This document shows positions 14,274 to 56,626 of a stretch of 64,000 nucleotides of DNA, in pieces (position 1 is the stretch's first letter; every line of letters begins with the position of its first letter). A program made the translations under genes and the position numbers. The stretch spans positions 960,001-1,024,000 of the forward strand of contig CAWBZI010000001.1 in the NCBI GenBank assembly GCA_963793265.1, read 5' to 3'. Source of the stretch: an uncultured cyanobacterium (GTDB lineage Bacteria > Cyanobacteriota > Cyanobacteriia > Phormidesmidales > Phormidesmidaceae). Below the pieces are notes generated by a model. That model was not told where the DNA came from. It did not search any database and saw nothing but the letters and a program-made list of their open reading frames with translations.

Positions 14274-15074
14274 GTGACGCTCGGCGCGGTTATTCTTCTA
14301 TCTTTAACAGGCTTAGTTTCTGGCGTATTGGCTGGTTTTTTGGGCATTGGAGGCGGTACTTTGCTGGTGCCGGTGCTGGTGCAGCTTGGCTTCTTGCCAG
14401 TGCGGGCGACGGCGACGAGTTCGCTAGCTATATTAGTCACTTCTAGCGCGGGCAGCTTTCAGAACTGGCGAATGGGCTTTTTGGACGTTAGGCAAATTTT
14501 GCTGCTGGGTGCACCTGCGGTATTGACGGCTTTTGTGGGGGCTTTTGTGGGCGATCGCATCCCCTCATACGTCCTCCTCGCAGGCTTTGGCGTCCTGCTA
14601 CTGAGCAACCTATATCTTGTCTCACTCAAAAAACGCGTCATCCGCACGGCTCAGTTTCGAGAGGGGCGCACAGCCTCTACAGGGCCAGCCATTTCGCCGC
14701 TAACGGCCCGCATTATTACTGGAGCGACAGCGGGATTTATGGCCGGGCTCTTCGGTGTCGGCGGCGGTGTCATCTTAGTACCGCTACAAATTTTGCTACT
14801 GGGCGAACAGATTAAAACGGCCATTCGCACCAGTCTTGGCGTTATTGTCATCACCTCTGTCGCGGCGATTTCTGGACATGCGCTCAATGGCAATATTGAT
14901 TTGATTGCTGGTTTAATCTTGGGCCTCGGTGGCCTCGTCGGCGTACAGATCAGCACACGCTTTCTGCCTAAGCTGAGTGACAGCACAGTCACCCAGCTCT
15001 TTCGAGCCATGCTGATCGTGCTGTCAATTTTCATTTTTTGGCAGGCTTGGCAAACCTACAGAACGGTGAGCTAG
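14274..15074 (+). CDS. Sulfite exporter TauE/SafE family membrane protein
   Basis: Duplicated GFLGIGGG / GLFGVGGG motifs, multiple TM helices. Confidence 0.9.
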   Translation: MTLGAVILLSLTGLVSGVLAGFLGIGGGTLLVPVLVQLGFLPVRATATSSLAILVTSSAGSFQNWRMGFLDVRQILLLGAPAVLTAFVGAFVGDRIPSYVLLAGFGVLLLSNLYLVSLKKRVIRTAQFREGRTASTGPAISPLTARIITGATAGFMAGLFGVGGGVILVPLQILLLGEQIKTAIRTSLGVIVITSVAAISGHALNGNIDLIAGLILGLGGLVGVQISTRFLPKLSDSTVTQLFRAMLIVLSIFIFWQAWQTYRTVS

Positions 15075-15100
15075 AACAAAGCCAAAACGGCAAGCTGACG

Positions 15101-15871
15101 CTAGGCTTCACACAGAGCCTTTGCCAAAACAATATCAAAATATTTAGCCTCTCCTACCTGACCCGAAATCACTTCAAAGGGTGCGTTTGGTTCGCCAAAG
15201 TCGCTGATAACGAGCGTGGCTTTTGAGAAGTCTTGTTGGCGGGTGTAGTCATTGACGGTGACGACGGTTTTAAGTCCGGTTTGCGTCGCTGAGAGCAGGC
15301 CGTTGTTGGTATCTTCAAAGCCAAGGCAGTTTTCAGGCGGGAGCTGGAGGTGCTTGAGGGCGTATTCAAAAATGTCGGGGGCGGGCTTTTTGTGTGGCAC
15401 CATGTCGCCTGCGGCAATGACCTCGAACCAGTCGAGGCTTTGCGCGCCGAGGGTGTTTTCGAGTAGGGCTTGGACGTTTGCTGGGGTTGTTGTTGTTGCG
15501 ATCGCTAATCTCACTCCCTTTTCCCTCGCCTCATTCAGCAACCGCTCCACTCCAGGCCGCAAAGGAATCTTCCCTTCTGCCGCATACTGCTTGTAATACT
15601 TCGTCTTAGTCGCGTGCAGGTGCTTAATAAATTCCGTGAGATCGGCGTAGGCATCAGGCAGTACAAAATCCGGCTTGGACTGCTGCACAAACGCCTTCAT
15701 CCGCTCCTTACCGCCCGAGACTTCTAGCAGCTCGCCATAGCGCTCCTCAGACCAGTTCCAGTCCAGGCCGTTGTCGGCAAAAGCCTGGTTAAACGCGGGC
15801 CGATGGCCGTCACGCTCGGTTTCGGCCAGGGTGCCATCTACGTCAAAAATCAGTGCTTTTAGCTCGGCCAT
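15101..15871 (-). CDS. cbbY: HAD-IA hydrolase, CbbY-like
   Basis: LIFDVDGTLAETERDGHR, GGKERM, KKPAPDIF, FEDT. Confidence 0.85.
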   Translation of the reverse strand: MAELKALIFDVDGTLAETERDGHRPAFNQAFADNGLDWNWSEERYGELLEVSGGKERMKAFVQQSKPDFVLPDAYADLTEFIKHLHATKTKYYKQYAAEGKIPLRPGVERLLNEAREKGVRLAIATTTTPANVQALLENTLGAQSLDWFEVIAAGDMVPHKKPAPDIFEYALKHLQLPPENCLGFEDTNNGLLSATQTGLKTVVTVNDYTRQQDFSKATLVISDFGEPNAPFEVISGQVGEAKYFDIVLAKALCEA

Positions 15872-15954
15872 AAGTGCGTCTCGTGAAGTGGGATCGTCCG
15901 GGTTGATTTTACCGCTTTGGGAACACTCAAACTTGATGGAAGAGGGCCGCATTA

Positions 15955-17214
15955 GTGACAGCATCGGATATAGGAGAAAGAGCGTATTGGCTGGCGTGGT
16001 CGCAAATTAAAGGCGTTGGGCCTGTCACCATCAAGCATCTATGGGAGCACTTTGGGGCTTTGGCCCTGGCCTGGCAGGCACCAGCCGGTGAGCTGCTGAC
16101 GGTAGACGGTATCGGACTGCTAATTGCCGATAAAATTGTGTCGCTGCGCCGCAAAATAAATCCAGCAGAGCTACTAGCTCAGCATGAGAAGGCAAATAAA
16201 GCGTTTTGGACGCCTGCTGATCCTGACTATCCGGCGCTGCTGTTTGCCATTAACGATCCGCCACCGCTGCTTTACTATCGCGGTGCGCTGCGGCCCAATG
16301 ATATGCCCGATGCGCTGACGGTCGGTATTGTTGGCACGCGATTACCTTCTCCGTATGGTCAAAGGTGGACGCGCAGGCTGAGCAGTCGGCTGACCCAACA
16401 AGGAGCTATTATTGTTTCTGGGCTCGCAGCGGGAATTGATACCGAAGCGCATACGAGCTGTTTACAGCATCAAGGGCAAACCATCGCAGTCGTTGGAACG
16501 GGCGTGGATCAGGTGTATCCGGCAAGTAACAGAAGTCTGCACGCTCAGATTGCGACGGCTGGCCTAATTGTTAGCGAATATCCTGACGGAACGGGGCCAG
16601 ATAAAAAGCATTTTCCGCAGCGTAATCGGATTATTGCCGGGCTGAGTCGGGCAGTACTGGTGACAGAGGCTCCGGCAAGATCGGGGGCGCTGATTACCTC
16701 GCGGCTGGCAAATGAGTATTGCCGGGAGGTGTACGCGTTGCCCTGTGGGTTGGATAGCCTTCAGGGAGAGGGGTGTTTGAACCTGATTAATCAGGGCGGG
16801 CAGATGATTTTGGGTGAGCAGAGTTTGGTGGATGCGCTAGCAGAGATCCCGTCTGTGGAAGCGATCTTACCTGGGCGTTTGCCTGGGCGGAAGGTAGGGC
16901 AGGCAAACGCCCAGAGAGAAGGGGTGACTACGCAGGAAGGTCAAGCTTCGGATAGGACTGAAGGCGTTGAGACAAGAAGATCTTCTAGCTCGGCTGTTTT
17001 GGCAACCTCTGCTTCGGGGCCTTCTGTCCAGGTAGATAAGCTATCGCCTGTGCTGAAGCAGGTGCTAGAAGCTGTACCGATTGAGCCTACTGTGTTGGAT
17101 CAGATAGTGCACGGGTCACAGGTTGATATCGGAAAGGTGCTGGGGGCATTGTTAGAGCTGGAGCTATTGGGACTGATTACGCAGCTTCCAGGAATGCAGT
17201 ATCAAAGATGCTGA
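15955..17214 (+). CDS. dprA: DNA processing protein DprA
   Basis: DPPPLLYYRG, IVGTR, VSGLAAGIDT, FPQRNRIIAGLS, SGALIT, C-terminal LLELELLG winged helix. Confidence 0.96.
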   Translation: MTASDIGERAYWLAWSQIKGVGPVTIKHLWEHFGALALAWQAPAGELLTVDGIGLLIADKIVSLRRKINPAELLAQHEKANKAFWTPADPDYPALLFAINDPPPLLYYRGALRPNDMPDALTVGIVGTRLPSPYGQRWTRRLSSRLTQQGAIIVSGLAAGIDTEAHTSCLQHQGQTIAVVGTGVDQVYPASNRSLHAQIATAGLIVSEYPDGTGPDKKHFPQRNRIIAGLSRAVLVTEAPARSGALITSRLANEYCREVYALPCGLDSLQGEGCLNLINQGGQMILGEQSLVDALAEIPSVEAILPGRLPGRKVGQANAQREGVTTQEGQASDRTEGVETRRSSSSAVLATSASGPSVQVDKLSPVLKQVLEAVPIEPTVLDQIVHGSQVDIGKVLGALLELELLGLITQLPGMQYQRC

Positions 17215-17365
17215 ATATAGTTGGGAATGGGCGCGATCGCAAAGAATAACGAGCCAGAGGGAAGAAGTGGTACAAGCAATCCGTAACTAATCAGGGCAAT
17301 CTGATGTAAAGATCGAAACATAAGCGATCGCCTCGTCACTGATTCCATTACGACCCTTCTACGCC

Positions 17366-18772
17366 ATGCCATCTGTCACTAATCGCGCTCAGCCCGCCCT
17401 TAATTTTATTCCACCAAACTACAGCGACTGGGTGCGGCGGCTAATGCGACCGCTGATGCCTGCTTGGACGGCATGGAAAACAAACGTCGCTGAGGTAGAA
17501 ACGCAGAACATAGAGACACTGGCGAATGTGTACCAGGAATTTGCAGCGGGAAAGACGAGAGTGCTGCTGGCCTTTCGCCATCCAAACGCAGTCGATCCTT
17601 ACGTATTGAGTCACTTGCTTTGGCAAGAGCTACCCCGCACGGCGCGTCAAATGGGTCTGGATTTGGGGCCGACGCATTCTCACTTTATGTACGACCGGGG
17701 CATTCCACTGTGGGCAGGAAACTATATAACCTGGGTGTTTGCCCGGCTCGGCGGCGTACCCATTCAGCGAGGCAAGTTGGATTTGATGGCGCTAAAGACG
17801 GCGCGAAAGTTGCTATTGGACGGGCAGTTTCCGCTGGCAGTGGCTCCTGAAGGCGGCAATAACGGGCACAACGAAATTATCAGTCCGCTGGAGCCTGGGA
17901 TTGCACAGCTTGCTTTTTGGTGTGCAGAAGATTTGAAGGCAGCGCAGCGACCCGAGTCGGCAGTGGTTTTACCAATAGGCATTCAATATCGCTATGTGGA
18001 GGAGCCTTGGGCGCAGCTAGGCAAGCTGATTAGCCAGATGGAAACAGACAGTGGCATCGGTAAGCCGAACGCTGAAGAGACGGCGGCTTTGCAGGAGATG
18101 TTTGTAGGCTCTGAGGCACATGCTGACTTGTACCGGCGGCTGTACCGGCTAGCTGAGCATTTGCTGACGCTGATGGAAGGGTATTACACAGACTTTTATG
18201 GGATGAGTTTTGAGTCGCCGGAGGGCGGTGTGCTAGGTGTGGGGGACGCGGAACCGAATGTGCTGCTGGGCGATCGCCTCCAAATCCTCATGAATAAATC
18301 GCTACAGGTCGCAGAAAACTACTTCGGCATCCGGCCCAAAGGCAGCACTATCGATCGCTGCCGCAAGCTAGAGCAGGCGGGTTGGGATCGGATTTTTCGA
18401 GAAGATACGCTGGGACTATCGCCCGTTGAACTAGGGCTAGCCGACCGGGTTGCAGAAGAAGCCGACTTGAGAATGTGGCATATGCGCTTAGTTGAGAGTT
18501 TTGTCGCTGTCACCGGCTGCTATGTGAAAGAACACCCAAGCGTGGATCGCTTTGCTGAAACAGCGCTGTTGCTGCATGGCATGATAGCGAAGATAAAAGG
18601 AGAGCGAAAAATAAAGCCACAGCTCGGCTTGCAAAAGGCAGTTGTGACCATCGGTCAGCCGATTGAGGTGACCGAGCGGCTAGCGGGCTATAAGAAGAAA
18701 AGGAGAGGGGCGATCACACAGCTCACCCAAGACCTACAGTCTGAAATGGAATCACTCATCATCAACACTTAA
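17366..18772 (+). CDS. PlsC-like phospholipid/glycerol acyltransferase family protein
   Basis: RHPNAVD (HxxxxD), APEGG, LPIGIQY. Confidence 0.85.
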   Translation: MPSVTNRAQPALNFIPPNYSDWVRRLMRPLMPAWTAWKTNVAEVETQNIETLANVYQEFAAGKTRVLLAFRHPNAVDPYVLSHLLWQELPRTARQMGLDLGPTHSHFMYDRGIPLWAGNYITWVFARLGGVPIQRGKLDLMALKTARKLLLDGQFPLAVAPEGGNNGHNEIISPLEPGIAQLAFWCAEDLKAAQRPESAVVLPIGIQYRYVEEPWAQLGKLISQMETDSGIGKPNAEETAALQEMFVGSEAHADLYRRLYRLAEHLLTLMEGYYTDFYGMSFESPEGGVLGVGDAEPNVLLGDRLQILMNKSLQVAENYFGIRPKGSTIDRCRKLEQAGWDRIFREDTLGLSPVELGLADRVAEEADLRMWHMRLVESFVAVTGCYVKEHPSVDRFAETALLLHGMIAKIKGERKIKPQLGLQKAVVTIGQPIEVTERLAGYKKKRRGAITQLTQDLQSEMESLIINT

Positions 18773-18779
18773 TAACGGC

Positions 18780-20746: not shown

Positions 20747-20772
20747 GGTGGAGACAGGTTGGAGATAGGGCT

Positions 20773-25889: not shown

Positions 25890-28800
25890 ATGAAGCGCTA
25901 TGGCCTGATTGTGGGGATTGACAAGTATAAGCCTGTCTCTCGTCTGCCGTATTACGGAAGTCCAACAAGCTTGAATAGGGCTAAAAGTGACGCTCAGGCG
26001 GTGTATGAGCTGCTGCGGGAGCATGGCGATTTTAACGATCTTTTGACTCTGTACGATAGTCAGGCGACTGAGGCTGAGCTGAAGAAGGCGCTAAAGCATG
26101 TGCTATTGGAGCAGGGCAAGCAGGCGGAGGTGCTGATTTATTTTGCGGGGCATGGGTTTACGGCGCAGCCGAGTGAGTTTGAGCGGCAGGGGTATTTGGC
26201 GACTTACGATTGCCAGGTTCGGGTGCAGGATGATGTGCCGGTAAATGTTGAGCAAGGGCTGTCGTTTGAGTTTTTGAACGGGGTGATTGGGAAGGCGCAG
26301 CGGGAAGGGCTGGCAGGGCTGGCTGTGTTTTTGGATTGCTGTGAGAGTGAGCTGATTATTGAGGATGCGCTGATAGGTCACAAGCTGAGCCGACTGACGC
26401 AGAAGGGCTGTTTTTTGAGTACGGCCTGTCGGAGCTTTGAGGTGGCGCGGGAGGATGCGCGGTATGGGCTGTATACCGGGGCTTTGGTGGCGGCGCTGAC
26501 GGATGAGGCGGATGTGAGTGCGGGCAATGAGATTACGGTTTCGGAGGCGCATAATCGGGTGGAAAGGGCGCTGAAGGAGTCGGGGCAGGAGCCGATTGCG
26601 TTTGGCTATGGCAGCAGTATGGTGATGGTGCGCTATCGGGGTGCGGGTGTTGCGCAGGCGGTGAGTGAGGTGTGCCCGTATCAGGGGTTGAATGAGTTTA
26701 CGCCGGAGACGGCGCAGTTCTTTTTTGGGCGGGATGATGAAGTTGCTGAGCTGTGTCAAAAGCTGAGGACGACTAATTTTGTGCCAGTGTTGGGGCCTTC
26801 GGGGAGTGGAAAGTCTTCGGTGGTGCGGGCGGGGCTGGTGAAGAGGCTGCAGACTGAGGGCTGGCAAACGGTGACGATGAAGCCGGATAAGCAGCCGATG
26901 GTGGAGTTGGAGCGGGTGCTACGGCAGTTTTTTGAGACGATGGGGTTTTCTACCGGGCGGGTGCGTGAGGTGATGGAGGGTTTGGGCTTTTGTGAGCTAG
27001 GTGAGGGCGATTTGAGTGGCGATGACCATAAAGCCTTCCCGAAAGAACTAGACCATCTGAAGCAATCCGACCTTAAGCTATTGCTCATCGTCGATCAGTT
27101 TGAGGAGGTGTTTACGCTATGTGAGGACAAAGCAGCGCAGCGGGCGTTTATTCGCAAGCTATTTCATCTGGGCGAGGTGGGAGCATCGCGGATAAAAGTG
27201 GTGATGACGATGCGGTCGGATTTTGTGGATGACTGGCTGGCGGCGGGACTGTCGCGGTCGGTGATTGGGGAGGATACGGTGTGGCTGGGGGCGTTGCAGG
27301 GAGAGAATTTGGCGGCGGTGATGGAGCAGCCTGCACGGAAGCAGGGCTATGCGTTTGAGGCGGGGCTGCTGAAGCTGTTGCTGACGGATGTGGACAAAGA
27401 AGAGAATTGTTTGCCGCTGTTGGAGTTTGCGCTGACGGCGCTGTGGGATAAGCGAGAGACGCAGACTAGAAAACTGACGGTGACGCTTATGAAGAGATGG
27501 AAGGGCTGACAGGGGCGCTGAATCGGCAGGCGATCACGGTGTATGAAGGCTTGCAGGACGTGGATAAGCCGTGGGCGAAGCGGATTTGTTTACAGCTTGT
27601 GCGGGTGGGGCGAGGGGATAAAGATACTCGGCAGCGGCAACCAAAAGCAATGTTGTTGAGTATGGGCGGTGTAGCTCAGCGACAGGTGATTGCTGATGTG
27701 ATTGCTGATTTGGTGAAGGGGCGATTGTTGGTGAGTGATGGAGGTGGTGTTGCAGAAACCGCTTATGTGGATGTTGCGCATGAAGCTCTGCTGAGCGGAT
27801 GGGAGCAGTTTGCCGCATGGCGGCTGGAGGATAGAGATCTGCTGCGGCTAGAGCAGCGGCTAAAGGATGCTTATGAAGATTGGCAAGCTAAGGAAGATAG
27901 TCAAGAAAGAGATAAGTATTTACTGACAGGTGGGCTGCTGGCGGAGGTAACAGAACAGCACGTGGCACTAGGCGAACGGCTGAGAGGTAATCGTCCCGCA
28001 TTGATGAAGTACCTCAATGACAGTAGCCGGAAAGCTGAAAAAGATGTAGAAGTATTAAAAAAAGCGCTTGCCAAGGCCAGCCTACAAGAGGAATCTCGTA
28101 AAGTCTTAGACAAATTCGAATCAACTTCAAGCCTCTCAGTAGAGGCTACTCTGTCAGTGATAGAAATTGCAGGGAGAAGTAAGCATACTTTGAATGAGTT
28201 GATTCCGCCTGTTCAGAATGCCTTGCACACAGCGCTATCAAGAAATCGAGAGCGATTGAGAATAGAGAATCAGATGAGTCTAGTTGATTCACTTGCTTTC
28301 AATCCCTCATGCGATATCTTTGCTGCCGGGAATGAGGATGGAACTCTTCGCTTGTGGGATATGCACGGAAACCCAGCCAGCCAGCCTTCTCCAAGTAGAC
28401 ATTGCGGTAGCATTTGGTCGTTAGCATTTAGTCCCAAGGGAGATCGAATCGTCTCTGGTGGAAGCGATGGCATGTTATATCTCTGGGACTCACAAGGTTC
28501 TCCGATTATATGTTCATTTGAGGGGCACACTAGCGAGTTCATGGATGTTGCTTTCAACCATAGAGGAAATCTCATCGTATCAGGCGATAGAGAGGGTATT
28601 CTACGCCTTTGGAATAGAGATGGAAAGATGATCGGGGACCCTTTCTTTGTAGAGAATTCAGGATCAGTTCTATCCTTATCTTTTAATAAAAAAGGAGATC
28701 ACATAGTCTCATGTCACGATAGCGGAGAAGTATTTTTGTGGAACTTAGCTGGCGAAATTGTTGGTAAACCTTCTTTTTTTGAGGCAACAGGATTCTCTGT

Positions 28801-32341: not shown

Positions 32342-34216
32342 ATGCTAATTAATAACCGATATCATGTGATTCGCGCGCTGGGAGAAGGCGGCTTTGGCCA
32401 TGCCTATTTAGCCACTGACCAGCAAATGCCGTCGCAAAGAAAGTGCGCTATTAAGCAGCTTAAGCCGATGAATGATAGCCCGAAAACCTATGAGGTTGTG
32501 AAGGCACGGTTTCAGCGAGAGGCCGCTATTTTAGAAAAGCTGGGAGAGGATCATCCACAAATTCCCAGGTTGTATGCCTACTTCAGCGAGAATCATCAGT
32601 TCTATCTGGTGCAGGAGTGGGTGGATGGCATTACGCTAAACGCACTCGTCGCCCAGCAAGGCCCCCAGCCTGAAGCCGCAGTCCGTTCGATCTTAGCCGC
32701 GCTGCTGCCCGTGCTGACGTTTGTGCACAGTCAGGGCATTATTCACCGAGATATCAAGCCCGACAACATTATTTTAAGGGCCGGTTCACAGCAGCCCGTG
32801 CTGATCGATTTTGGCGCAGTCCGAGAGACGATGGCGACGATCATTGACAGTCAAAATAGCCCTCAAAGCTCAGTGGCTATTGGCACACCCGGCTTTATGC
32901 CACCAGAACAGGCCGCAGGACGACCGATTCCCTCTAGCGATTTGTATAGTCTTGGGCTGGTGGCTATTTTCTTACTGACGGGCCGGTTGCCTCACTCATT
33001 TGGCACTGACACGCAGACAGGTGAGATTATCTGGCAGTCGGCGGTGCAGCACGTGAGTTCTGGATTTGTGGCGGTGTTAGATAAGGCGGTGAGGTCGCAT
33101 CCACGCGATCGCTTCACCAGTGCCCAAGCCATGCTCAGTGCCCTATCCTCACTTCCCGAAGCCACCGAAGCGCCTGTATCACCCGTCATCCCAGCCAACA
33201 TTCATCCACCCAGCAACCATCTGGCCGTACCACAGCAGTACCATCCGCTTGCCGCCGATAGCACCCTGAAAACAGTTGCTGTTGCACCTGAGCGGAAAGA
33301 ACAGGTTGGCAACGGTTCTACTTCAACACTGCCAAAGGAGAATCTCGAAAAGACTGACATTGGCAATGTTCATACCGATAGCGCCTCAACCCATAATGAC
33401 AATAGCGAAACGCCTCGTAAACGGTTCTCTCCTTTAGTGATTGGGCTAGGCGTTTTGGTGATTGCAGGTGGTGCGATCGCTAGCGGACTCTCCCTAAACC
33501 AATCTCAAAACAGCCCGCCAGCGCCACAAGCAATAGAATCAGCGCCCATCAAAGAAAAGAAAGCGAAGAAACCTAACACAAAAGAGCCAAAGGAAGCCAA
33601 GGTCGCAACCGAAACACAACCCACACTTGATGAACTGCCAGCAGAAACAACAGAACCAGAAGCAACAGAATCCATTGCTGAGAACGCGCCTCAAGCAGCC
33701 GGAGGACAGTTGACGCTCGGCAGCTCCTCAGGCCAAATCCCGATATACAACAATCCTTCTTTCGCAGCCCAGTCGCCTCAATCTGGGGCAAGCGGCGATC
33801 GCGTCACCATATTGCAACAGTCTCAAGGCGCTGACGGCACCTGGTATCGGGTTCGCTTCCCTTCTGGCGCTGAAGGCTGGGTATCCGGGGCCTACGCTGA
33901 TTCATCCAGCTACTCAGCTACCGCTGCACCCACGCCCGCCGTTTCACCCTCAGCGCCCGCACCCGCGCCCAGTCCTGAAGCCTCGCCGCCGCCTGCTGAC
34001 ACCTCATCGGCGCAAATCGTCGGTGCAAATGGCGCTCAGGTAAATGTGTATTCGGCTCCGTCTAGTGATTCGGGGTCGCCTCATTATGGGGTGGCGGGCG
34101 ATCGCATCGACATCATCAACAGCGCACAAGGCGAAGATGGCCGCACCTGGTATGAGGTACAGTTCGACTCAGGCGCAAGCGGCTGGGTCAGCGGTGACTC
34201 GGTAAAAGCGCCTTAG
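32342..34216 (+). CDS. Hanks-type Ser/Thr kinase with TM helix and two C-terminal SH3b-like domains
   Basis: LGEGGFG, AIKQL, HRDIKPDN, DFG, GTPGFMPPE; TM LVIGLGVLVIAGGAIA; two GDR..I......DG.TWY.V.F.SGA.GWVSG repeats. Confidence 0.92.
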   Translation: MLINNRYHVIRALGEGGFGHAYLATDQQMPSQRKCAIKQLKPMNDSPKTYEVVKARFQREAAILEKLGEDHPQIPRLYAYFSENHQFYLVQEWVDGITLNALVAQQGPQPEAAVRSILAALLPVLTFVHSQGIIHRDIKPDNIILRAGSQQPVLIDFGAVRETMATIIDSQNSPQSSVAIGTPGFMPPEQAAGRPIPSSDLYSLGLVAIFLLTGRLPHSFGTDTQTGEIIWQSAVQHVSSGFVAVLDKAVRSHPRDRFTSAQAMLSALSSLPEATEAPVSPVIPANIHPPSNHLAVPQQYHPLAADSTLKTVAVAPERKEQVGNGSTSTLPKENLEKTDIGNVHTDSASTHNDNSETPRKRFSPLVIGLGVLVIAGGAIASGLSLNQSQNSPPAPQAIESAPIKEKKAKKPNTKEPKEAKVATETQPTLDELPAETTEPEATESIAENAPQAAGGQLTLGSSSGQIPIYNNPSFAAQSPQSGASGDRVTILQQSQGADGTWYRVRFPSGAEGWVSGAYADSSSYSATAAPTPAVSPSAPAPAPSPEASPPPADTSSAQIVGANGAQVNVYSAPSSDSGSPHYGVAGDRIDIINSAQGEDGRTWYEVQFDSGASGWVSGDSVKAP

Positions 34217-36874: not shown

Positions 36875-37030
36875 GCTGGCTCGGTCATTAATCACTGGGT
36901 AGCAGCGCAGATTAATTCACATATTTCTCAGCGTTTAGTCAGCCTCGCTACGGGCAAGTTGCGTAAATTCGGTAGACTGGATAACTGAAAGATCCGCTAG
37001 TCGATTTTGTCTTTTCTAGAGAGTGACCCG

Positions 37031-39628
37031 ATGCTTGAGTCCTATCGCAAACACGTTGAAGAACGCGCAGCTTTGAATGTGCCTCCCCTGCCTTTAGATG
37101 CTGAGCAGGCGGCTGCCCTTTGCGATTTGCTCAAAAACCCTCCGGCGGGTGAGGAAGACTTTTTGATGTCGCTGCTGTGCGATCGCATTCCCCCCGGTGT
37201 TGACCCGGCTTCGTATGTAAAAGCTTCGTTTTTGAGTGCGATCGCCCAAGGTGAAACCCACAGCCCGCTGATCTCACCCAAAAAAGCCGTCGAACTCCTC
37301 GGTACTATGATGGGCGGCTACAACGTGGCTTCCCTAATCGCCCTGCTCAAAGACGAACGCCCCGAAATCGCTCAGCTTGCCGCAGATGCCCTGAAGAAAA
37401 CCCTCCTCATATACGACGCCTTTAATGACGTAATGGATCTGTCCGAGTCCAACGACTACGCTAAGCAAGTTGTAGACGCTTGGGCTGAGGCCGAATGGTT
37501 TACCAGCAAGCCAGAAGTGCCCGAAACCATTACCGTCACCGTCTTTAAGGTGCCCGGCGAAACGAACACCGACGATCTTTCACCCGCCCCCCACGCCACC
37601 ACTCGCCCCGATATTCCACTTCACGCTCAGGTGATGCTAGAGTCCACGATGGAAAAGCCGCTAGAGACGCTAGCTGAGCTGAAGCAAAAAGGACATCCGG
37701 TGGCCTACGTGGGCGATGTGGTCGGCACGGGCTCCTCGCGTAAGTCAGCGATGAACTCGGTGATTTGGCACATTGGTTCGGACATTCCCTTTGTGCCGAA
37801 TAAGCGGACGGGTGGGGTGATTTTGGGGGGTGCGATCGCGCCCATTTTCTTCAACACCGCCGAAGACTCCGGCGCACTGCCCATCGAGTGCGATGTCACC
37901 AAAATGAACACAGGTGACATCATTACCATCCATCCCTACCAGGGAAACATCACCAACGAAGCAGGCGAAGTCATTTCCACCTTCACCCTCACCCCCGAAA
38001 CCCTGCTTGACGAAGTACGCGCAGGCGGTCGCATCCCGCTCATCATCGGTCGCGCCCTCACCGACAAAACCCGCATCGCCCTCGGCCTCGAACCCTCCGA
38101 CATTTTCGTGCGCCCTTCTGCCCCCACCGACACTGGCAAAGGCTTCACCCTCGCCCAAAAAATGGTCGGCAAAGCCTGCGGCCTCACGGGCGTCCGTCCC
38201 GGCACCTCTTGCGAACCGCTTATGACCACCGTCGGCTCGCAAGACACAACCGGCCCTATGACCCGCGACGAAATGAAAGAACTCGCCTGCCTCGGCTTCA
38301 GCGCGGGCCTCGTCCTCCAGACCTTCTGCCACACCGCCGCCTACCCCAAACCCGTAGACGTACAAACCCACGCCACCCTCCCCGACTTCTTCGCCTCCCG
38401 TGGCGGCGTCGCCCTCGAACCCGGCGACGGCATCATCCACTCCTGGCTCAACCGAATGCTATTGCCCGACACCGTAGGCACTGGCGGCGACTCACACACC
38501 CGCTTCCCTCTCGGAATCTCCTTCCCCGCAGGCTCGGGCCTAGTTGCCTTTGCAGCCGCTATCGGCGCGATGCCACTAGACATGCCCGAATCTGTTCTCG
38601 TGCGCTTTAAAGGAGAACTTCAGCCCGGCATCACCCTTCGCGACGTGGTGAACGTCATCCCTTACGTCGCCATCCAAAAAGGTCTTCTCACCGTCGCCAA
38701 AGAGAACAAAAAGAACGTCTTCTCAGGCCGCATTCTCGAAATAGAAGGACTCCCCGACCTCAAGCTCGAACAAGCCTTTGAACTCACCGACGCCTCAGCC
38801 GAACGCTCCTGCGCAGGCTGCACCATCAAGCTCAGCGAAGAAACCACCGCCGAATACCTCCGCTCCAACGTCGCCCTGCTCAAAAACATGATCGCTCGCG
38901 GCTACCACGACGAACGTACCCTCGCCCGTCGCATCGCTGAAATGGAAAAGTGGCTAGAGAACCCCTCACTCATGAGCGCCGACGCCGACGCCGAGTACGC
39001 CGAAGTCCTTGAAATTGACCTCAACAACCTCAAAGAGCCCATCGTCGCCGCCCCCAACGACCCCGACAACGTAAAAACCCTCTCAGACGTAGTAGGCGAC
39101 AAAATCGATGAAGTCTTCATCGGCTCCTGCATGACCAACATCGGCCACTACCGCGCCGCCGCCAAAGTGTTAGAAAACGAAGGCGTCGTCAACGGTCGCC
39201 TCTGGATTTGCCCACCCACCCGCATGGACGAAAAACAGCTCCGCGCGGAAGGCTACTACGGCACCTTTGCCGCCGCAGGCGCTCGCACCGAAATGCCCGG
39301 CTGCTCTCTGTGCATGGGCAACCAGGCCCGCGTAGAAGATGGCGTCACCGTCTTCTCCACCTCCACCCGCAACTTCAACAACAGAATGGGCAAAGGTGCT
39401 CAGGTGTATTTAGGCTCTGCCGAACTCGCAGCAGCTTGTGCCTTATTGGGCCGCATTCCGGCAATGGATGAATATTTGGAGGTTGTTGCCAACAAAATTG
39501 ATCCATTTGCAGATGAGCTATACCGCTACCTCAACTTTAACGAGATTAAGGGCTTTGAAGATGAGGGTCGAGTTGTACCGAAAGAAGACGAAGAGAAAAT
39601 TGAGAAAGAGGCGGTGGCTGCTGGCTAA
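37031..39628 (+). CDS. acnB: Aconitate hydratase B
   Basis: [58 protein letters not shown]. Confidence 0.98.
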
Positions 39629-40942: not shown

Positions 40943-41422
40943 ATGACTGCAAAACTATCCACAGATAGCCTGACAGAATTGTATGATTGCGATGTCGCCC
41001 TCTGGTCGGAGCGGACGGTGGAGCTGTTGCGGCAGGGAAGGTTTGATGAACTGGATTTGGAGAATTTGATTGATGAGGTGGGTGACTTGGGTAGACGAGA
41101 GCGCGATCGCCTAATAAGCTCTATTCGCCTAATCATGCACCACCTCTTAAAGTGGGAACACCAGCCAGAAAAACGTTCTCGTAGCTGGATCAAGACCATT
41201 CAGCGCGAACGAATAAACGTTCAAAGCTATTTAGAGGATACGCCTAGCTTAGTAAGAATATTTGATGCTGAGTGGATGGATAAAGCCTATCGAACGGCTC
41301 GAAAGCAGGCTGCGGTTGAGACAGATTTGCCACTTGAGACGTTTCCACAGCAGTGCCCTTACCAGTGGGCGCAAGTGTTGGAAGACGGTTTTCCAGAAGA
41401 TTTGACTGATGAGCAAAGTTAA
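40943..41422 (+). CDS. DUF29 family protein
   Basis: LYDCDVALW...LDLENLIDEV.DLGR...HLLKWEHQP...PSL...FPQQCPY. Confidence 0.92.
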   Translation: MTAKLSTDSLTELYDCDVALWSERTVELLRQGRFDELDLENLIDEVGDLGRRERDRLISSIRLIMHHLLKWEHQPEKRSRSWIKTIQRERINVQSYLEDTPSLVRIFDAEWMDKAYRTARKQAAVETDLPLETFPQQCPYQWAQVLEDGFPEDLTDEQS

Positions 41423-45565: not shown

Positions 45566-46554
45566 GCTTGCTTTGACCATTGAGAGGGAATTAAGTCGTT
45601 TACGTATCTGATGTATTCCGTTAAGGGGCGGTCGATAGGCAACAGGTTTTGTGGATTGAACTGAATGTTGTCGTATATTTGGCCATCTTCACCACGTAGA
45701 GCGTAGTAACAGAGTTGAGTGAGGAGCAATAGCATTGTGTTTATCAGCCAGCCAATCGGGCCTTTGCGCTTACGGGTGACGTAGATCGGCTGTATGCGTG
45801 TGCCGCCTGAAGCGAGGGGAACGTAGGCATATAACAAATGGAGCGGCGGTAGGAAGCGCACGTTTTTCATCATGGTTAGCAGCCCTACGCAGCCATGTGA
45901 ATAGCGCATGGAATAGGTATAGGTGTGGCCCAGTATTTTTTGACCGATGCCTGTGGGTAAGTCTCCGGTGAGGGTGAAGTCAATCTGGCCCTTTTCATCT
46001 TCCCGATCTAAAGAGAGTGACATATCGACAGGCAGATTATGCACAGTCTGTAAATGCTGCACGTCGATGCCGTTCATCATACAGATGTGGTGATGGCATT
46101 TACGTTCCAGGGTTTTATCGGCGCGGGTGATGATTTCGTGGCCTTTGAGTTCGTCAAATTCGGGGAGGCTTGAGGGGGCGATCGCATCAGGATAAACCCA
46201 AACAAACCCATACTTCTCTTCGGTCGCATAAGCCTGAAGCCTCGCGTTCGCGGGTATGTGCGACTGACAGGGAATCTGTTGACAAACGCCCGACTCGTCA
46301 AAAGCCCAATGGTGAAAAAAGCAGCGGGCTTGATTACCCACCACGTCGCCAATGCCTAAATCTGTGCCCATGTGCGGACAGTAGGCGTCGAGCGATCGCA
46401 CCCTTCCATCCTCACCTCTAAACACCGCAATCCGCTGGCCGCACACATCGAAAGACTGAATGCTTTTAACAGGCAAAGCATCACTAGCACAAACGATATA
46501 CCAGCCTTTTACAACAACATCAGGATTATTGAAAATAGTCAGCCCCATAGTCAT
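45562..46554 (-). CDS. Rieske non-heme iron oxygenase 2
   Basis: DAYCPHMGT...CFFHHW; NGIDVQHLQTVH; EDGQIY. Confidence 0.9.
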   Translation of the reverse strand: MTMGLTIFNNPDVVVKGWYIVCASDALPVKSIQSFDVCGQRIAVFRGEDGRVRSLDAYCPHMGTDLGIGDVVGNQARCFFHHWAFDESGVCQQIPCQSHIPANARLQAYATEEKYGFVWVYPDAIAPSSLPEFDELKGHEIITRADKTLERKCHHHICMMNGIDVQHLQTVHNLPVDMSLSLDREDEKGQIDFTLTGDLPTGIGQKILGHTYTYSMRYSHGCVGLLTMMKNVRFLPPLHLLYAYVPLASGGTRIQPIYVTRKRKGPIGWLINTMLLLLTQLCYYALRGEDGQIYDNIQFNPQNLLPIDRPLTEYIRYVNDLIPSQWSKQA

Positions 46555-49638: not shown

Positions 49639-50391
49639 TCACGTCCTCGGGGTAGCTCGCAGAGGCAAAGCGGCCTCAGACGATTGCGACGAATCACCAA
49701 ACCACATTCGTCGCCCGGCCCGCGTCAAGTTATCTTCCGAAATCTCTGTCAAACACACCAACTCATCTCCCCGATCTGCCCCCGGATTCTGTTGTGCAAA
49801 AAATCGAACATGTGGATTACGCAATCGCTCGGGCGGAATGCCTTCCAAATGGCCTCTAAGCTGCTGAGGGGCGGGCAAGCGAACAACACCCGCCGCTTCG
49901 TCATACCATTCGCCAAACTGACGGCGACAGAGAAACTGCATAAGGCGGCGAGACTTTGATGGGATAGGCCGATCATGGCGAGGGTAAAAGGTTTGCCAAA
50001 ACGTCGGCATAAATCGGTAGGTGCGAAAGCCCGATGAAATCAAGAGCCAGTAGAGTTTGGCACCTTCGTATTGTTCTTTTAGCTGATTGACGGCGGCTAT
50101 CCAGGCTACAGACAGCGCTGAGCTTGACCACACGCTCGGATCAACAATCGTATCACCCGAATACACAACGGTAATCAGCTCGCCTTCAAAGGTGATGTCA
50201 TACATCAGTAACGTTGAGAATCCTTTTAGCGCCCGGCTTTCATCTTTTAGCAGCAGCACCCAATTTTTTAGGCCGAGATCGGTTTCAAACACCTCTGGCG
50301 TCGCCCCAGCAAAGTGAGCGTTCAACAAACCATACATAGCCGCTTTGTCTGTGGCTGTGAGCGCGGTGGTTTTGATCAGTTCGGTTTGCAT
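49639..50391 (-). CDS. Hypothetical protein, possible GNAT-like acyltransferase fold; first gene of the operon
   Basis: LKGFST, VYSGDTIVDP, YWLLISSGFRTYRF, NPG..RGDELVC; fold is inference. Start may be 50409. Confidence 0.7.
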   Translation of the reverse strand: MQTELIKTTALTATDKAAMYGLLNAHFAGATPEVFETDLGLKNWVLLLKDESRALKGFSTLLMYDITFEGELITVVYSGDTIVDPSVWSSSALSVAWIAAVNQLKEQYEGAKLYWLLISSGFRTYRFMPTFWQTFYPRHDRPIPSKSRRLMQFLCRRQFGEWYDEAAGVVRLPAPQQLRGHLEGIPPERLRNPHVRFFAQQNPGADRGDELVCLTEISEDNLTRAGRRMWFGDSSQSSEAALPLRATPRT

Positions 50392-51855: not shown

Positions 51856-51971
51856 AGTGTAAAACTAACTACAATATTTCAGATAGTATCTTAGATTGAG
51901 TAAATGACTATAGGCAGTATTCAAATAGCTTTGTAAGTTGAGATAGATTCACGAGTTCAAAGGAACATTCA

Positions 51972-54900
51972 ATGCCTAACACTTCTACTTCCAATGCCCA
52001 AACCGTAGGCCAGTGGCAGTTTTGGATCGACCGTGGCGGCACCTTTACCGATATTGTTGCGCAGCGCCCAGACGGATCTACCGTCGTTCACAAGCTGCTA
52101 TCTGAGAATCCTGAGCACTATGATGATGCACCGATTCAAGGAATTCGTGAGCTGTTAGAAGTAGAAGAAGGCGCGCCGATTCCTGCTGAGAAGATTTCGG
52201 TGGTGAAGATGGGAACAACGGTGGCGACAAATGCTTTGTTGGAGCGGAAGGGCGATCGCACCCTATTCATCACCACTAAAGGCTTCCGCGATGGTCTGCG
52301 CATTGGCTATCAAAACCGTCCTGATATCTTCGCTAGAGAGATTGTTCTACCTGAGATGCTTTATGAAAAAGTGATTGAGGTAGATGAGCGTGTGACCTCA
52401 GAAGGGGAAGTGCTTCAGGCGATTACGGCTGACGTTGAAAAGCAGGTTCGAGGAGATTTACAGGCTGCTTATGATGAAGGGATTCGGGCTTGTGCGATCG
52501 CCTTCATTCACGGCTACCGCTACCCCACTCACGAGCAACAGATCGCTGCCATAGCCCAGCAAATCGGCTTCACCCAAATCTCCGTATCCCACAAAGTTAG
52601 CCCGCTCATCAAATGGGTCAGTCGAGGCGACACAACCGTAGTAGACGCCTATCTTTCTCCCTTACTGCGGCGCTATGTTAATCGAATTGAACAGTCGCTC
52701 GGCGCAAACACAGCCCAGCCTCAGCTATTATTTATGCAGTCCAATGGCGGCCTTACCCCGGCTCAGTTTTTCCAGGGCAAAGATAGCATTCTTTCAGGCC
52801 CGGCAGGCGGTATTGTCGGCGCGGTTCAAACCAGCCGCATTGCAGGCTACAACAAAATTATCACCTTCGATATGGGCGGCACGTCTACCGATGTTGCTCA
52901 CTTCAATGGAGAGAATGATGGGACGTATGAGCGCGTTTTTGAAACAGAAGTTGCGGGCGTGCGGATGCGGGCTCCGATGATGGCGATTCATACGGTGGCG
53001 GCAGGTGGCGGTTCTGTATTGGGTTTTGATGGCGATCGCTTGCAAGTCGGCCCCGAATCAGCAGGCGCACACCCCGGCCCTACCTGCTATCGCAACAATG
53101 GCCCGCTCACGGTCACAGACTGCAACGTAATGGTCGGTAAAATTCAGCCGCAGTTTTTCCCTCAAGTGTTTGGGGCTCAAGGCGATCAGGCTTTAGATCG
53201 TGAAGGTGTGCAGATTAAGTTTACTGAACTAGCTGAGCAAATTAAGGCTTCGACAGGGGTGGAGAATTCGCCAGAGCAGGTGGCTGAGGGATTTTTAGCG
53301 ATCGCTATCGACAACATGGCAAACGCCATCAAAAAAATCTCCGTTCAAAAGGGCTATGACGTAGGCGACTATACACTTTGTTGCTTCGGTGCAGCGGGCG
53401 GACAACACGCCTGCCGTTTAGCTGAGAGTTTGGGTATGAAAACAATTCTCATTCATCCCTACGCAGGCGTACTGTCTGCGTATGGCATGGGCTTAGCAGA
53501 TAGACGTGTGCTCAAAGAGAGATCGATAGAAGCTGATATTGAAACGGATTTAACAAAACCGCTAGATGGCTTAGTAAGCGAGGCCACCGCAGAACTAGAA
53601 AAGCAAGGGAATCGTGATATTGATGCTATAGGGGTTTTGCGGCAGGTACATTTACGCTATCAGGGAACAGATTCTACTTTGGCAGTAGAGTTTGCTTCTC
53701 CAGCAACAATGCGGCAGCAGTTTGAGCAGCGCTATCAGCAGCAGTATGGCATCACGTTAGCTGATAAGGGTCTAGTGGTCGCAACAATTACAGCAGAAGT
53801 TGTGGGTAAAACAAAAGCGCCTGATGAGACTGTTCTAGCGACCAGTGAAATCAATTCAAAAGCCCCAACAGAGATTGCTCACGTACCGCTATTCTCAGCA
53901 AATGAATGGCACAATACACCCGTATTTCAGCGGCAGGCGTTACAGGCCGGACAGAAGATTGTTGGCCCTGCAATTGTGTTAGAGGCGACCGGGACTAATA
54001 TCGTTGAGCCAGGGTGGGAAGTAGCGGTAACCGAGCGCGGCGATTTGGTTTTGACTCAGATTTCTCAAGTGTCGTATGAGGCGCAACAGATTTCTGATGA
54101 GGGCAAGCCCGATCCAGTGCGGCTAGAGATTTTCAATAATTTGTTTCAGGCGATCGCAGAACAAATGGGCTTCACGCTCCAAAACACCAGCTCATCCGTC
54201 AACATCAAAGAACGCCTGGACTTCTCCTGCGCCATCTTTAACGGTCAAGGTCAGCTCGTCGCCAATGCACCCCACATTCCTGTCCATCTCGGCTCCATGG
54301 GCGAAAGCGTTCAAGCGCTGATTGCCGATCAGCAAAAGCCTTTCCAGCCAGGAGACGTGTTTATCTCCAACAATCCATACAACGGTGGCACACACCTACC
54401 AGATATTACAGCGATCACGCCTGTGTTCTCCGATAGCGACAAGCCACTGTTCTTTGTCGCTTCGCGAGGTCACCATGCCGATATTGGCGGTATTACGCCA
54501 GGGTCTATGCCGCCAAATAGTACGACGTTGGAGCAGGAAGGGGTTTTGTTGGATAACTTTTTGCTGGTAGAGCGCGGCGTGTTAGATGAGGATGGGTTGC
54601 GCGATTGTCTCACCACTGCCACCTATCCCGCCCGTAATCCTGACCAAAACCTGGCCGACCTCCAGGCCCAAATCGCTGCCAACAACAAAGGCGCTCAAGA
54701 ACTTCAGCGCATGGTCGCTCAATACGGTCTGCAAACCGTACAAGCCTACATGCAGCACGTACAAAACAACGCCGAACAAGCCGTCCGCAATGTCATCAGC
54801 CAGCTAGTCATCAGCCAGCTAGCCGCCCAGCACACACACACCACACACCTCACCGTCCCCATGGACTGCGGCGCACAAATAAAAGTCTCCATCACCCTAA

Positions 54901-55715
54901 ATCCCACCGACAACAGCGCTCTCATCGACTTCACCGGCACCTCACCCCAACAGTCCAACAACTTCAACGCCCCCCTCGCCGTCTGCAAAGCCGCCGTCCT
55001 CTATGTCTTCCGCACCCTCGTAGACGCCCCCATCCCCCTCAACGCCGGATGCCTCAAACCGCTAGACATCCGCGTCCCCACCCGCTCCATGCTCAACCCC
55101 ACCTATCCCGCCGCTGTCGTCGCGGGCAATGTCGAAACCTCCCAAGCCGTCACCGACGCTCTCTACGGAGCCCTCGGCATCCTCGCCGCCTCCCAAGGCA
55201 CCATGAACAACTTCACCTTCGGCAACGGCCAGTATCAATACTACGAAACCATCTGCGGCGGCTCGGGCGCTGGCAATGGCTTCCATGGTACGGATGCTGT
55301 GCAAACCCATATGACCAACTCTCGGCTCACCGATCCTGAGGTACTAGAGTTACGTTTTCCGGTATTGCTAAAAGAGTTTTCAATCCGACCAAACAGCGGC
55401 GGTAGTGGTCAATATCACGGCGGGAACGGTGTCGTTCGGCACCTTGTCTTCCACGAGACGATGACGGCTAATCTGCTATCAGGGCGGCGTAGCACTGAGC
55501 CCTTTGGTTTGTCAGGTGGAAAAGCTGGAAGACCAGGCAAAGCGGACGTTTGCCGTAAAGATGGCTCTGTTATGAAACTCTCAGCAACGGCCACCGTTGA
55601 GATGCAGCCGGGCGATGAGATTGTGATTGAAACGCCCGGCGGGGGTGGTTACGAATCCTTCAAGAATGCTTCAACATCGGCGGCAGTAGGCATCGAAGAC
55701 TGTGCGCCTGATTGA
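51972..55715 (+). CDS. Fused hydantoinase A/B, ATP-dependent 5-oxoprolinase family
   Basis: IDRGGTFTD, GTTVATNALLE, SGPAGG, DMGGTSTD, NIKERLDFSC, PHIPVHLGSM, GGTHLPD, ETPGGGG. Confidence 0.95.
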   Translation: MPNTSTSNAQTVGQWQFWIDRGGTFTDIVAQRPDGSTVVHKLLSENPEHYDDAPIQGIRELLEVEEGAPIPAEKISVVKMGTTVATNALLERKGDRTLFITTKGFRDGLRIGYQNRPDIFAREIVLPEMLYEKVIEVDERVTSEGEVLQAITADVEKQVRGDLQAAYDEGIRACAIAFIHGYRYPTHEQQIAAIAQQIGFTQISVSHKVSPLIKWVSRGDTTVVDAYLSPLLRRYVNRIEQSLGANTAQPQLLFMQSNGGLTPAQFFQGKDSILSGPAGGIVGAVQTSRIAGYNKIITFDMGGTSTDVAHFNGENDGTYERVFETEVAGVRMRAPMMAIHTVAAGGGSVLGFDGDRLQVGPESAGAHPGPTCYRNNGPLTVTDCNVMVGKIQPQFFPQVFGAQGDQALDREGVQIKFTELAEQIKASTGVENSPEQVAEGFLAIAIDNMANAIKKISVQKGYDVGDYTLCCFGAAGGQHACRLAESLGMKTILIHPYAGVLSAYGMGLADRRVLKERSIEADIETDLTKPLDGLVSEATAELEKQGNRDIDAIGVLRQVHLRYQGTDSTLAVEFASPATMRQQFEQRYQQQYGITLADKGLVVATITAEVVGKTKAPDETVLATSEINSKAPTEIAHVPLFSANEWHNTPVFQRQALQAGQKIVGPAIVLEATGTNIVEPGWEVAVTERGDLVLTQISQVSYEAQQISDEGKPDPVRLEIFNNLFQAIAEQMGFTLQNTSSSVNIKERLDFSCAIFNGQGQLVANAPHIPVHLGSMGESVQALIADQQKPFQPGDVFISNNPYNGGTHLPDITAITPVFSDSDKPLFFVASRGHHADIGGITPGSMPPNSTTLEQEGVLLDNFLLVERGVLDEDGLRDCLTTATYPARNPDQNLADLQAQIAANNKGAQELQRMVAQYGLQTVQAYMQHVQNNAEQAVRNVISQLVISQLAAQHTHTTHLTVPMDCGAQIKVSITLNPTDNSALIDFTGTSPQQSNNFNAPLAVCKAAVLYVFRTLVDAPIPLNAGCLKPLDIRVPTRSMLNPTYPAAVVAGNVETSQAVTDALYGALGILAASQGTMNNFTFGNGQYQYYETICGGSGAGNGFHGTDAVQTHMTNSRLTDPEVLELRFPVLLKEFSIRPNSGGSGQYHGGNGVVRHLVFHETMTANLLSGRRSTEPFGLSGGKAGRPGKADVCRKDGSVMKLSATATVEMQPGDEIVIETPGGGGYESFKNASTSAAVGIEDCAPD

Positions 55716-56626
55716 GTGACGGCTAGGGCCGCAACGGCGCTAGCGTAGTCAACAATAGGTCTGAGGAAGTCGTGACTAGACAGGTTAAGGGCGATATCAG
55801 CACGAGAAAAGCCGGTTTGGCAGAGGGCAGCGGCTAGGCCCCCATTAAAGGCGTCACCGGCTGCGATGGTGTCGGTGACTTCGACGGGAAAGGCTTGAGT
55901 GGCGAAGGTGCCGTTCTCTGTGGCGCAGATGCAGCCGAGTTCGCCCATTTTTACGATCACCACGGCTATGCCCCGGCGCTGAAGGGTTTCGGCAGCAGCG
56001 ATCGCACCCTTCACATCCAGCACATCCATCCCCGTAAGCTTCGCAGCCTCCGTCTGATTCGGCGTTAAAATCGAAATATACTCACAAAAATCTGCCGACA
56101 GCGATTCTTCCCAAGCGGGCACAGGAGCCGGATCAACAATCACCGTGAGGCCCGCTAAAGACGCTAGGGCGGCGGCTTTTTCAACAGTCGGCAGCGGAAT
56201 TTCAAACTGAAGTAGAAGCACCTGCGCCTGATTGAAATAGGGCGTGAGCCGGTCTAAATCTAGCTCGCTAATTTCGGCATTCGCGCCTGAGACAACAATA
56301 ATTTGATTATTCAGCGGTGAAAGGGTGATCAGGGCAGTGCCAGAAGGCGCTGTTTTGCTGGTGCCAAGTGCCGAGATAGTAATGTTTTCAGACTGGAGGC
56401 GATCGCGCAAAATCTTCCCAAAGCCATCATCCCCCACCCGGCCTACCATCGCCGTTTTCGCGCCCAAGCGAGCCGCCGCCACCGCCTGATTAGCACCCTT
56501 GCCGCCTGGCACCGTCGCAAAGCCTCTACCCGTCAGCGTTTCGCCCGGCTTTGGCAACCGATCTACCTGCGCCACCAAATCCATATTGACGCTGCCCAAC
56601 ACCACCACATCCACCGCATTCGCCAT
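55649..56626 (-). CDS. rbsK: Ribokinase
   Basis: GSVNMDL, PGGKGANQAVAAARLG, PNQTEA, DTIAAGDAF. Confidence 0.93.
   Translation of the reverse strand: MANAVDVVVLGSVNMDLVAQVDRLPKPGETLTGRGFATVPGGKGANQAVAAARLGAKTAMVGRVGDDGFGKILRDRLQSENITISALGTSKTAPSGTALITLSPLNNQIIVVSGANAEISELDLDRLTPYFNQAQVLLLQFEIPLPTVEKAAALASLAGLTVIVDPAPVPAWEESLSADFCEYISILTPNQTEAAKLTGMDVLDVKGAIAAAETLQRRGIAVVIVKMGELGCICATENGTFATQAFPVEVTDTIAAGDAFNGGLAAALCQTGFSRADIALNLSSHDFLRPIVDYASAVAALAVTQSGAQSSMPTAADVEAFLKDS

Follow-up and report, generated by a model that had tools for sequence, protein, structure and literature searches.

We analyzed a window of 64,000 nt (G000:C1:960001-1024000) from an uncultured cyanobacterium, whose genome, labeled G000, comprises 5.68 Mb in 7 contigs with 50.7% GC. 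The window carries genes on both strands, among them an aconitase B gene (37007-39628, + strand), and is dotted with the palindromic octamer HIP1 (GCGATCGC, with the halves GCGA|TCGC). We counted 72 HIP1 copies in the window, compared with 1.84 expected from dinucleotide shuffles, and 6,888 copies in the whole genome, or about 1.2 per kb. HIP1 is hyper-abundant in this cyanobacterial genome. To our knowledge, HIP1 has been without a demonstrated function for about 30 years. The first-pass annotation of the window proposed that base composition flips from G/T-rich to C/A-rich at HIP1 regardless of gene strand, and it saw in HIP1 the nucleation point of a mutation or repair process that is directional and strand-specific.

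We expressed the flip as S_GC (S for short), that is, G minus C per base in the left flank less the same quantity in the right flank, both taken at 12-100 bp from the octamer. Since reverse complementation leaves S_GC as it is, any departure of its mean from zero carries meaning even at a palindrome. Of the 71 testable HIP1 sites in the window, 61 had a G-rich left and a C-rich right flank (binomial p = 2e-11 against a random rate of 0.477), and the mean S_GC was 0.077 (z = 9.1). Genome-wide, the mean was 0.0585 ± 0.0008 (z = 73.5) and 80.7% of 6,887 HIP1 sites were positive, compared with a mean of 0.0002 and 47.7% positive at 50,000 random positions. The per-site distribution was shifted as a whole, with no bimodality and no special subset, and all 7 contigs displayed the flip (S 0.052-0.063).

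The GC skew on the left and right of HIP1 was +0.42 / -0.42 at 0-3 bp, +0.18 / -0.19 at 12-24 bp, +0.13 / -0.15 at 24-48 bp, +0.09 / -0.10 at 48-75 bp, and +0.04 / -0.05 at 100-150 bp, and came close to baseline by 300-400 bp. The sign change reaches well past the immediate flanks, and the two sides are near-equal and opposite genome-wide, which bears out the mirror symmetry around the palindrome that had been suggested. Whichever side of HIP1 is considered, G is in excess and C is depleted on the strand that runs with its 3' end towards the octamer. As for the proposed G/T-rich to C/A-rich change, the G versus C part stood, whereas the T-minus-A component was real yet smaller (S_TA 0.0218): A and T hardly shift at fourfold sites, and the T/A part of the flip (S_TA 0.022) stems from twofold sites.

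We then compared sites by gene context, using our own crude gene calls (4,694 open reading frames covering 86% of the genome). The flip was equal in size in + strand genes (3,201 sites), - strand genes (3,133 sites) and intergenic DNA (536 sites), with a small coding-strand baseline beneath. A transcription- or codon-associated skew would follow the gene strand and was rejected, because the sign of the flip does not do so and intergenic DNA flips too; the claimed independence of gene strand is upheld. HIP1 itself is scarcer in intergenic DNA (540 of 6,888 sites, 7.8%, vs 13.8% of bases by these crude calls) and favors the frame GCG-ATC-GCN (2,972 / 2,101 / 1,264 sites by codon position of its first G).

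At all eight HIP1 sites cited individually by the first-pass annotation, the left GC skew exceeded the right one (12-100 bp; difference 0.16 to 0.59). The skews were +0.30 left and -0.28 right at 14551..14558 in a + strand gene, +0.15 and -0.45 at 15498..15505 in a - strand gene, +0.47 and -0.06 at 18270..18277 in a + strand gene, and +0.36 and -0.07 at 52252..52259, also in a + strand gene. The site at 55998..56005, intergenic according to our gene calls, gave +0.04 and -0.30, and that at 46392..46399 in a - strand gene gave -0.11 and -0.32, a modest flip on a C-rich background. The smallest difference among the eight (0.16; +0.36 left, +0.20 right) belonged to 62787..62794, which had been singled out as weak. 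The strongest flip of the window was found elsewhere, at 33105..33112 (left minus right 0.90), followed by those at 41103 (0.87), 52494 (0.84) and 56399 (0.81).

The site at 37832..37839 lies inside the aconitase B gene and had been described as followed by more than 1 kb of C-ending codons. We confirmed both the flip (+0.18 left, -0.33 right) and the C-rich run (-0.27 at 300-1000 bp), but the run is far above the average HIP1 tail over the same distance (about -0.01 to -0.04), and most of it appears to be specific to this gene.

Two near-HIP1 words, GCGATGAC at 27019..27026 and GCGATTGT at 54601..54608, had been read as possibly decayed flip sites. Local skews there are flip-like (+0.55 / +0.07) and flipped (+0.42 / -0.40), respectively, but neither word flips as a class: GCGATGAC (n=309) gave +0.032 / +0.033 and GCGATTGT (n=384) +0.023 / +0.034, with left and right agreeing in sign. 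Of the 12 classes one base away from HIP1, only GTGATCGC/GCGATCAC (n=764) retained the flip (+0.047 / -0.038). GTGATCGC is the commonest one-off variant in G000 (766 copies vs 168-466 for the others) and would be the likely product of methyl-C deamination if CGATCG is methylated at its first C; in the 80-kb samples of relatives described below, the counts are too small to set this variant excess against flip strength across genomes.

As controls we took 119 palindromic octamers with at least 40 copies each, and none of them flips once overlap with HIP1 is allowed for. The sole scoring control, ATCGCGAT (z = 9), adjoins HIP1 in 164 of its 298 copies. No flip was seen at CGATCG lacking the outer G and C (n=484), at GATC outside CGATCG (n=8,892) or at the 12 palindromic double variants of HIP1, and when all 6-mers more than 300 bp from HIP1 were scanned, z never exceeded 2.9 and S stayed at or below.007, so that no further word acts as a positive anchor. 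The flip is specific to the full octamer, GTGATCGC excepted.

We also searched the flanks for hidden structure. Mirror positions are complementary no more than expected by chance, which rules out hairpins and extended palindromes; at -1/+1 the complementarity is 0.193 vs 0.267 expected (z = -13.7; 6,872 sites with full flanks), and it is avoided at ±2 and ±3 too. Once base composition is corrected for, every word of 2 to 6 nt stays within 1.5-fold enrichment in the flanks, so no flanking or Chi-like word is hidden there.

To locate the flip within codons, we measured GC skew by codon position. At third positions 12-24 nt from HIP1 it was +0.42 upstream and -0.36 downstream against a baseline of +0.01, and it was still +0.15 / -0.09 at 100-150 nt. 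Positions 1 and 2 shifted by just 0.04-0.10 and were at baseline again by about 75 nt. The flip is carried mainly by silent sites and is weakest at amino-acid-determining positions. At fourfold sites 9-25 nt upstream, G was.431 and C.153 (baseline.275 /.286), with A (.171) and T (.245) nearly unmoved, and the downstream side was the mirror image (C.444, G.149). This shift was seen in 8 of 8 codon boxes and with every neighboring base; the G:C odds ratio ranged across contexts from 2.1 to 3.5 upstream and from 0.33 to 0.46 downstream (overall change about 2.7-fold), and fourfold sites near HIP1 gave no TpC or CpG context signature. Among twofold sites, the pyrimidine ones shifted towards T upstream (.71) and C downstream (.60), and the purine ones towards G upstream (.66) and A downstream (.63). 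Their odds shifts (T:C x2.1, G:A x1.7) agree with those at fourfold sites (x1.85, x1.75), so that a single scale, G > T ~ A > C on the strand ending 3' at HIP1, fits both. Third-position GC content near HIP1 was.52-.58, compared with a baseline of about.54.

The skew falls to half over about 50-75 bp, and at isolated sites its tail extends to about 1-1.5 kb. The kernel at isolated sites is heavy-tailed (-0.055 at 200-400 bp, -0.036 at 400-800 bp, -0.012 at 800-1600 bp), and between neighboring HIP1 sites the profile is the sum of the opposing kernels. Proteins carry the imprint as well. The 8 codons upstream of HIP1 are enriched in E, M, V and G and the 8 codons downstream in T, I, N, P and H; for instance, Glu makes up 7.3% before vs 5.1% after HIP1, and Thr 5.0% vs 6.9%.

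Next, we asked how the flip relates to the presence of HIP1 in orthologous DNA, using five 80-kb samples from the same genus aligned to G000 (about 74% of aligned bases identical; two samples partly overlap one G000 region, so that a few G000 sites are counted twice). Where HIP1 was present only in G000 (n=126), S was.059 in G000 and.013 in the relative; where it was present only in the relative (n=124), S was.022 in G000 and.050 in the relative; and where both had it (n=169), S was.074 and.052, respectively. In the genome without HIP1, S depended on how far the orthologous 8-mer was from HIP1, being.061 at one mismatch (n=32),.013 at two (n=50),.012 at three to four (n=131) and.004 at five to eight (n=37). 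Therefore, the flip is gained or lost along with the octamer, lagging behind it by about one motif mutation. Next to shared HIP1, divergence is no different from the background: the excess identity at third positions was.33-.35 vs.33, in a test of low power with third positions half saturated and alignments selected by BLAST. This result fits a directional bias more than added mutagenesis.

To see how widely the flip is distributed, we compared it among lineages. All five same-genus samples displayed it (S.047,.064,.052,.032 and.033; z 4.8-9.6). Among genomes of other families, G027 had a moderate flip (S.036, z = 3.8), G020, G022, G024, G026 and G029 had a weak one (S.013-.021), and G025 (31 sites) and G028 (26 sites) had none. 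G023 also lacked it (S.002 ±.0035) in a sample with 240 HIP1 copies in 80 kb, or 3 per kb, which means that HIP1 alone is not sufficient. Pooling the eight other-family genomes gave a folded skew of.073 at 12-25 bp, which dropped to.011 at 50-100 bp; within the genus the corresponding values were.10-.26 and.04-.09. We further examined 80 loci around the aconitase B gene in named assemblies, binned by AcnB identity to the window copy. At identities of at least 89% (20 loci, mostly Phormidesmis / Phormidesmidales; 467 HIP1), S was.057 ±.003 and positive at 20 of 20 loci. It was.034 at 83-88% (14 loci, Leptothoe and Leptolyngbya groups; 90 HIP1),.018 at 80-82% (23 loci, mixed groups; 283 HIP1) and.007 at 74-79% (23 loci, Nostocales and others; 329 HIP1). 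As S falls with AcnB distance, the trait is quantitative, with its peak in the Phormidesmis clade. The flip is not a general property of HIP1, being absent in G023 and weak in most other families.

The variants of HIP1 differ among these genomes as well. G021 (C1:100001-180000) had no HIP1 in 80 kb and 146 copies of GGGATCCC, with no G/C flip there (S.002). In G023, G026 and G024, 7-mer variants NCGATCGC reached 30-52 copies each vs 55-241 HIP1, while in G000 they are rare (187-303 vs 6,888 HIP1). From the counts of NCGATCGC versus GTGATCGC variants, lineages do not seem to share one unit that is under pressure.

We surveyed repair and methylation genes by family matches. G000 has MutS (PF00488, 2 matches), MutL (PF08676, 1 match), RecJ, and 8 matches to C5-methyltransferase (PF00145), representing at least 7 genes; one PF00145 match outside the window (G000:C1:809848-811017), interrupted by two in-frame stops (one TGA and one TAG), is probably a pseudogene. 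MutH (PF02976) had no match in G000, in a search blind to an unrelated analogue. Vsr (PF03852) was found in 0 of 31 genomes, with control genomes detected, and RecC (PF04257) in 0 of 30 HIP1-bearing genomes, G000 included. The only RecC match among the 31 genomes was in G019 (C3:70093-71124), which has 61% GC and is HIP1-poor (6 in 80 kb). With Vsr, MutH and RecC not found in G000, the canonical routes of very-short-patch (VSP) repair, MutH and RecBCD/Chi are unsupported.

A flip at HIP1 was not described in the literature that we found, including the accessible text of Xu et al. 2018, Elhai 2015 and a 2026 GBE paper, with subscription-only papers and supplements outside the search. In the accessible text of Elhai 2015 (PMC4390886), the word 'skew' is absent and only short palindromic extensions of HIP1 are described. 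We compared the flip with known compositional asymmetries. It shares with replication GC skew the excess of G over C and of T over A on one strand and a sign change at a defined point, with HIP1 having the polarity of a terminus. However, replication produces two switches per replicon on the Mb scale, whereas HIP1 marks thousands over 100 bp to 1 kb; with 6,887 local switches of one polarity, a sign independent of replication direction and 7 contigs alike, replication-associated skew was rejected. GC-biased gene conversion resembles the flip as a fixation-like bias that is clearest at silent sites and leaves the overall rate unchanged, but it favors G/C over A/T on either strand, while at HIP1 G and C swap strand-wise. 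The stable third-position GC content, held while the G:C odds change about 2.7-fold, means that ordinary GC-biased conversion is not the source.

Chi with RecBCD/AddAB offers another likeness: an over-represented octamer proposed to stimulate recombination, with the 3'-ending strand 5' of the site preserved. Chi is asymmetric and HIP1 palindromic, and in the absence of RecC matches from G000 and the other 29 HIP1-bearing genomes, membership in the Chi/RecBCD system was rejected. We know of no flank skew reported at Chi. At human meiotic break hotspots, the resected strand carries a signature of C>N and A>N changes, according to the accessible part of Hinch et al. 2023 (PMC7615360). These hotspots share with HIP1 a mirror asymmetry centered on the site, the loss of C and A on the 3'-ending strand and a reach of 1-2 kb. 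They differ in that an excess of new mutations was measured there, while at HIP1 the signal is an equilibrium composition, in a bacterium, at an 8-bp palindrome recurring about 1.2 times per kb; the raised substitution rate typical of hotspots was not seen beside HIP1 in our low-power test. We regard the flip as a new, motif-anchored variant of strand-compositional asymmetry.

The specificity for the octamer, the concentration at silent sites and the tracking of HIP1 in orthologues all support the proposal that HIP1 nucleates a directional, strand-specific process, and none of the tests able to refute it did so. Our best reading is that HIP1 starts a polar, strand-specific DNA transaction that biases which base gets fixed; as judged from composition, either mutation or repair on the one hand or biased gene conversion on the other would fit. 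Among the possible forms, we tentatively favor, at somewhat less than even confidence, a footprint of recombinational repair or gene conversion starting from a nick or break at HIP1, with the loss of one strand in the 5'->3' direction outward from HIP1. In this model, the palindrome would be nicked or cut by a nuclease directed to HIP1. Resection running 5'->3', with RecJ present and RecBCD not found, would then spare the strand ending 3' at HIP1, and this retained or invading strand would pair with another chromosome copy. The fate of mismatches would then depend on their type. G-G and G-T mismatches are well recognized by MutS. The C-C mismatch essentially escapes MutS repair, according to the accessible part of PMC5416779. 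C on the retained strand (C-C, C-A, C-T) would be poorly recognized, tolerated and converted, whereas G on the retained strand (G-G, G-T) would be recognized and rejected, giving a net drive of G > A ~ T > C on that strand. Such strand-oriented biased gene conversion would alter the direction of substitutions and not their total rate. The observed order, with G<->C strongest, transitions intermediate and A<->T nil, is what a mismatch-recognition filter would leave.

Several points weigh against this reading. The case is wholly compositional and correlational, and the HIP1 nuclease, like the nick or break, is hypothetical. The sign of the bias hangs on the assumed rule that recognized mismatches are rejected and unrecognized ones converted; the opposite rule would reverse it. 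The low-power rate test does not separate conversion from one-way mismatch repair, and the HIP1-dense G023 has no flip.

The closest competitor is post-replicative mismatch repair running one way from HIP1. In the accessible text of Elhai (Life 2015, PMC4390886), G-methyl-C-directed mismatch repair at HIP1 is proposed, acting over about 1 kb, with an E. coli fall-off at about 1 kb cited. The same octamer and strand-directed repair from methylated HIP1 link that model to our data, as do the MutS and MutL of G000 with MutH not found; however, it explains HIP1 gain, predicts no polar G/C footprint and includes a hypothetical nicking enzyme. In a polar version, hemimethylated HIP1 would be the place where an enzyme akin to MutH nicks the new strand, with excision from there going 5'->3' only, so that a new strand running towards HIP1 would be less corrected, keep errors of the G-T/G-G type and turn G-rich. 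Geometry and distance scale would then be the same as observed, the order of G<->C over transitions over A<->T may fit asymmetric polymerase errors, and repair of this kind can be rate-neutral, so that the divergence test does not count against it. The C5-methyltransferase genes, at least seven in number, and the top rank of GTGATCGC, as methylation at the first C of CGATCG would predict, also speak for it. But no enzyme nicking HIP1 or G-methyl-C is known, and matches to the MutH and Vsr families were not found. MutH-less bacteria probably rely on the nuclease of MutL itself together with the clamp. In addition, G023 should flip if HIP1 density serves repair, yet it does not, and we consider this version unlikely, if far from negligible. 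Added mutagenesis, in which breaks or nicks at HIP1 are resected 5'->3' and the 3' tail suffers damage or error-prone filling (C>N and A>N), seems to us more doubtful still. Its geometry and sign, with C and A lost and G gained on the 3'-ending strand, match the accessible data of Hinch et al. 2023 (PMC7615360), RecJ is present, and the heavy-tailed reach resembles a distribution of resection lengths. Nevertheless, cytosine deamination predicts a gain of T, whereas fourfold T is unchanged and G is up 57%, and no TpC or CpG context effect is seen; simple deamination was rejected. By our own estimate, the about 2.7-fold shift in G:C odds would also need a rise in the silent rate of at least about 25%, and none was seen beside shared HIP1, at low power.

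Selection might also act on the flanks for HIP1 function, for example because RecA loads better onto 3' tails rich in G, or because some protein reads the G-rich/C-rich junction. RecA prefers GT-rich DNA. HIP1 is itself selected and conserved according to the accessible text of Xu et al. 2018 (PMC5861425). We find this explanation very unlikely: at each of 6,888 loci, tens of silent sites would have to be under weak selection that fades smoothly out to 1 kb, the flanks show no motif enrichment beyond base composition, the amplitude is equal in genes and intergenic DNA, and G023 is HIP1-dense without a flip. Highly improbable, too, is the reverse order of events, in which G-rich/C-rich junctions arise otherwise and HIP1 (GCGA|TCGC) is preferentially born there. 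One-off orthologues are already near the full flip (S.061, n=32), and by our estimate a skewed context makes the word about 1.4-fold likelier; however, where the 8-mer of the other genome is three or more bases off, its flip is.004-.012 vs.042-.055 in the HIP1 genome, no 6-mer away from HIP1 marks a positive junction, and no independent junction-making process is known. A by-product of coding sequence, of an extended palindrome or hairpin, or of a HIP1-carrying repeat family has a practically negligible chance. The reading-frame preference of HIP1 would suit it, but the same flip occurs in intergenic DNA and on both gene strands and is weakest at amino-acid-determining positions, mirror complementarity is not above chance and falls below it at ±1 to 3, all sites together are displaced in the per-site distribution, which is not bimodal, and the flanks share no motif.

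We prefer conversion from a nick or break at HIP1 over these alternatives because HIP1 raised homologous integration in PCC 7002 in a manner 'reminiscent of Chi' (bioRxiv 10.1101/2024.09.10.611283, accessible text), because the tract lengths fit, and because the mismatch-repair model predicts a flip in G023. It is also possible, though short of probable, that an undescribed cyanobacterial enzyme system recognizes HIP1, nicks or cuts it and starts one-way strand replacement, with the flip giving its polarity, its tract lengths (to about 1.5 kb) and its activity in each lineage.

The flip provides a measurable trace of HIP1 activity, from which a polarity, a length scale, a base scale of G > T ~ A > C and, lineage by lineage, a strength can be read. 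This strength can be compared with gene content across genomes, which offers a route to the enzyme, and the question of HIP1 function becomes directly testable. About 25% of G000 lies within 100 bp of HIP1, and 58% within 300 bp of HIP1 or its likely deamination product. Consequently, codon-usage measures, predictions from GC skew (e.g., of origins) and substitution models are confounded in such cyanobacteria. If the enzyme system is real, its activity would range from nil in a genome of the Synechococcus elongatus type to very high among the Phormidesmis clade, and it would rewrite silent sites over at least a quarter of the genome and measurably shift protein composition.

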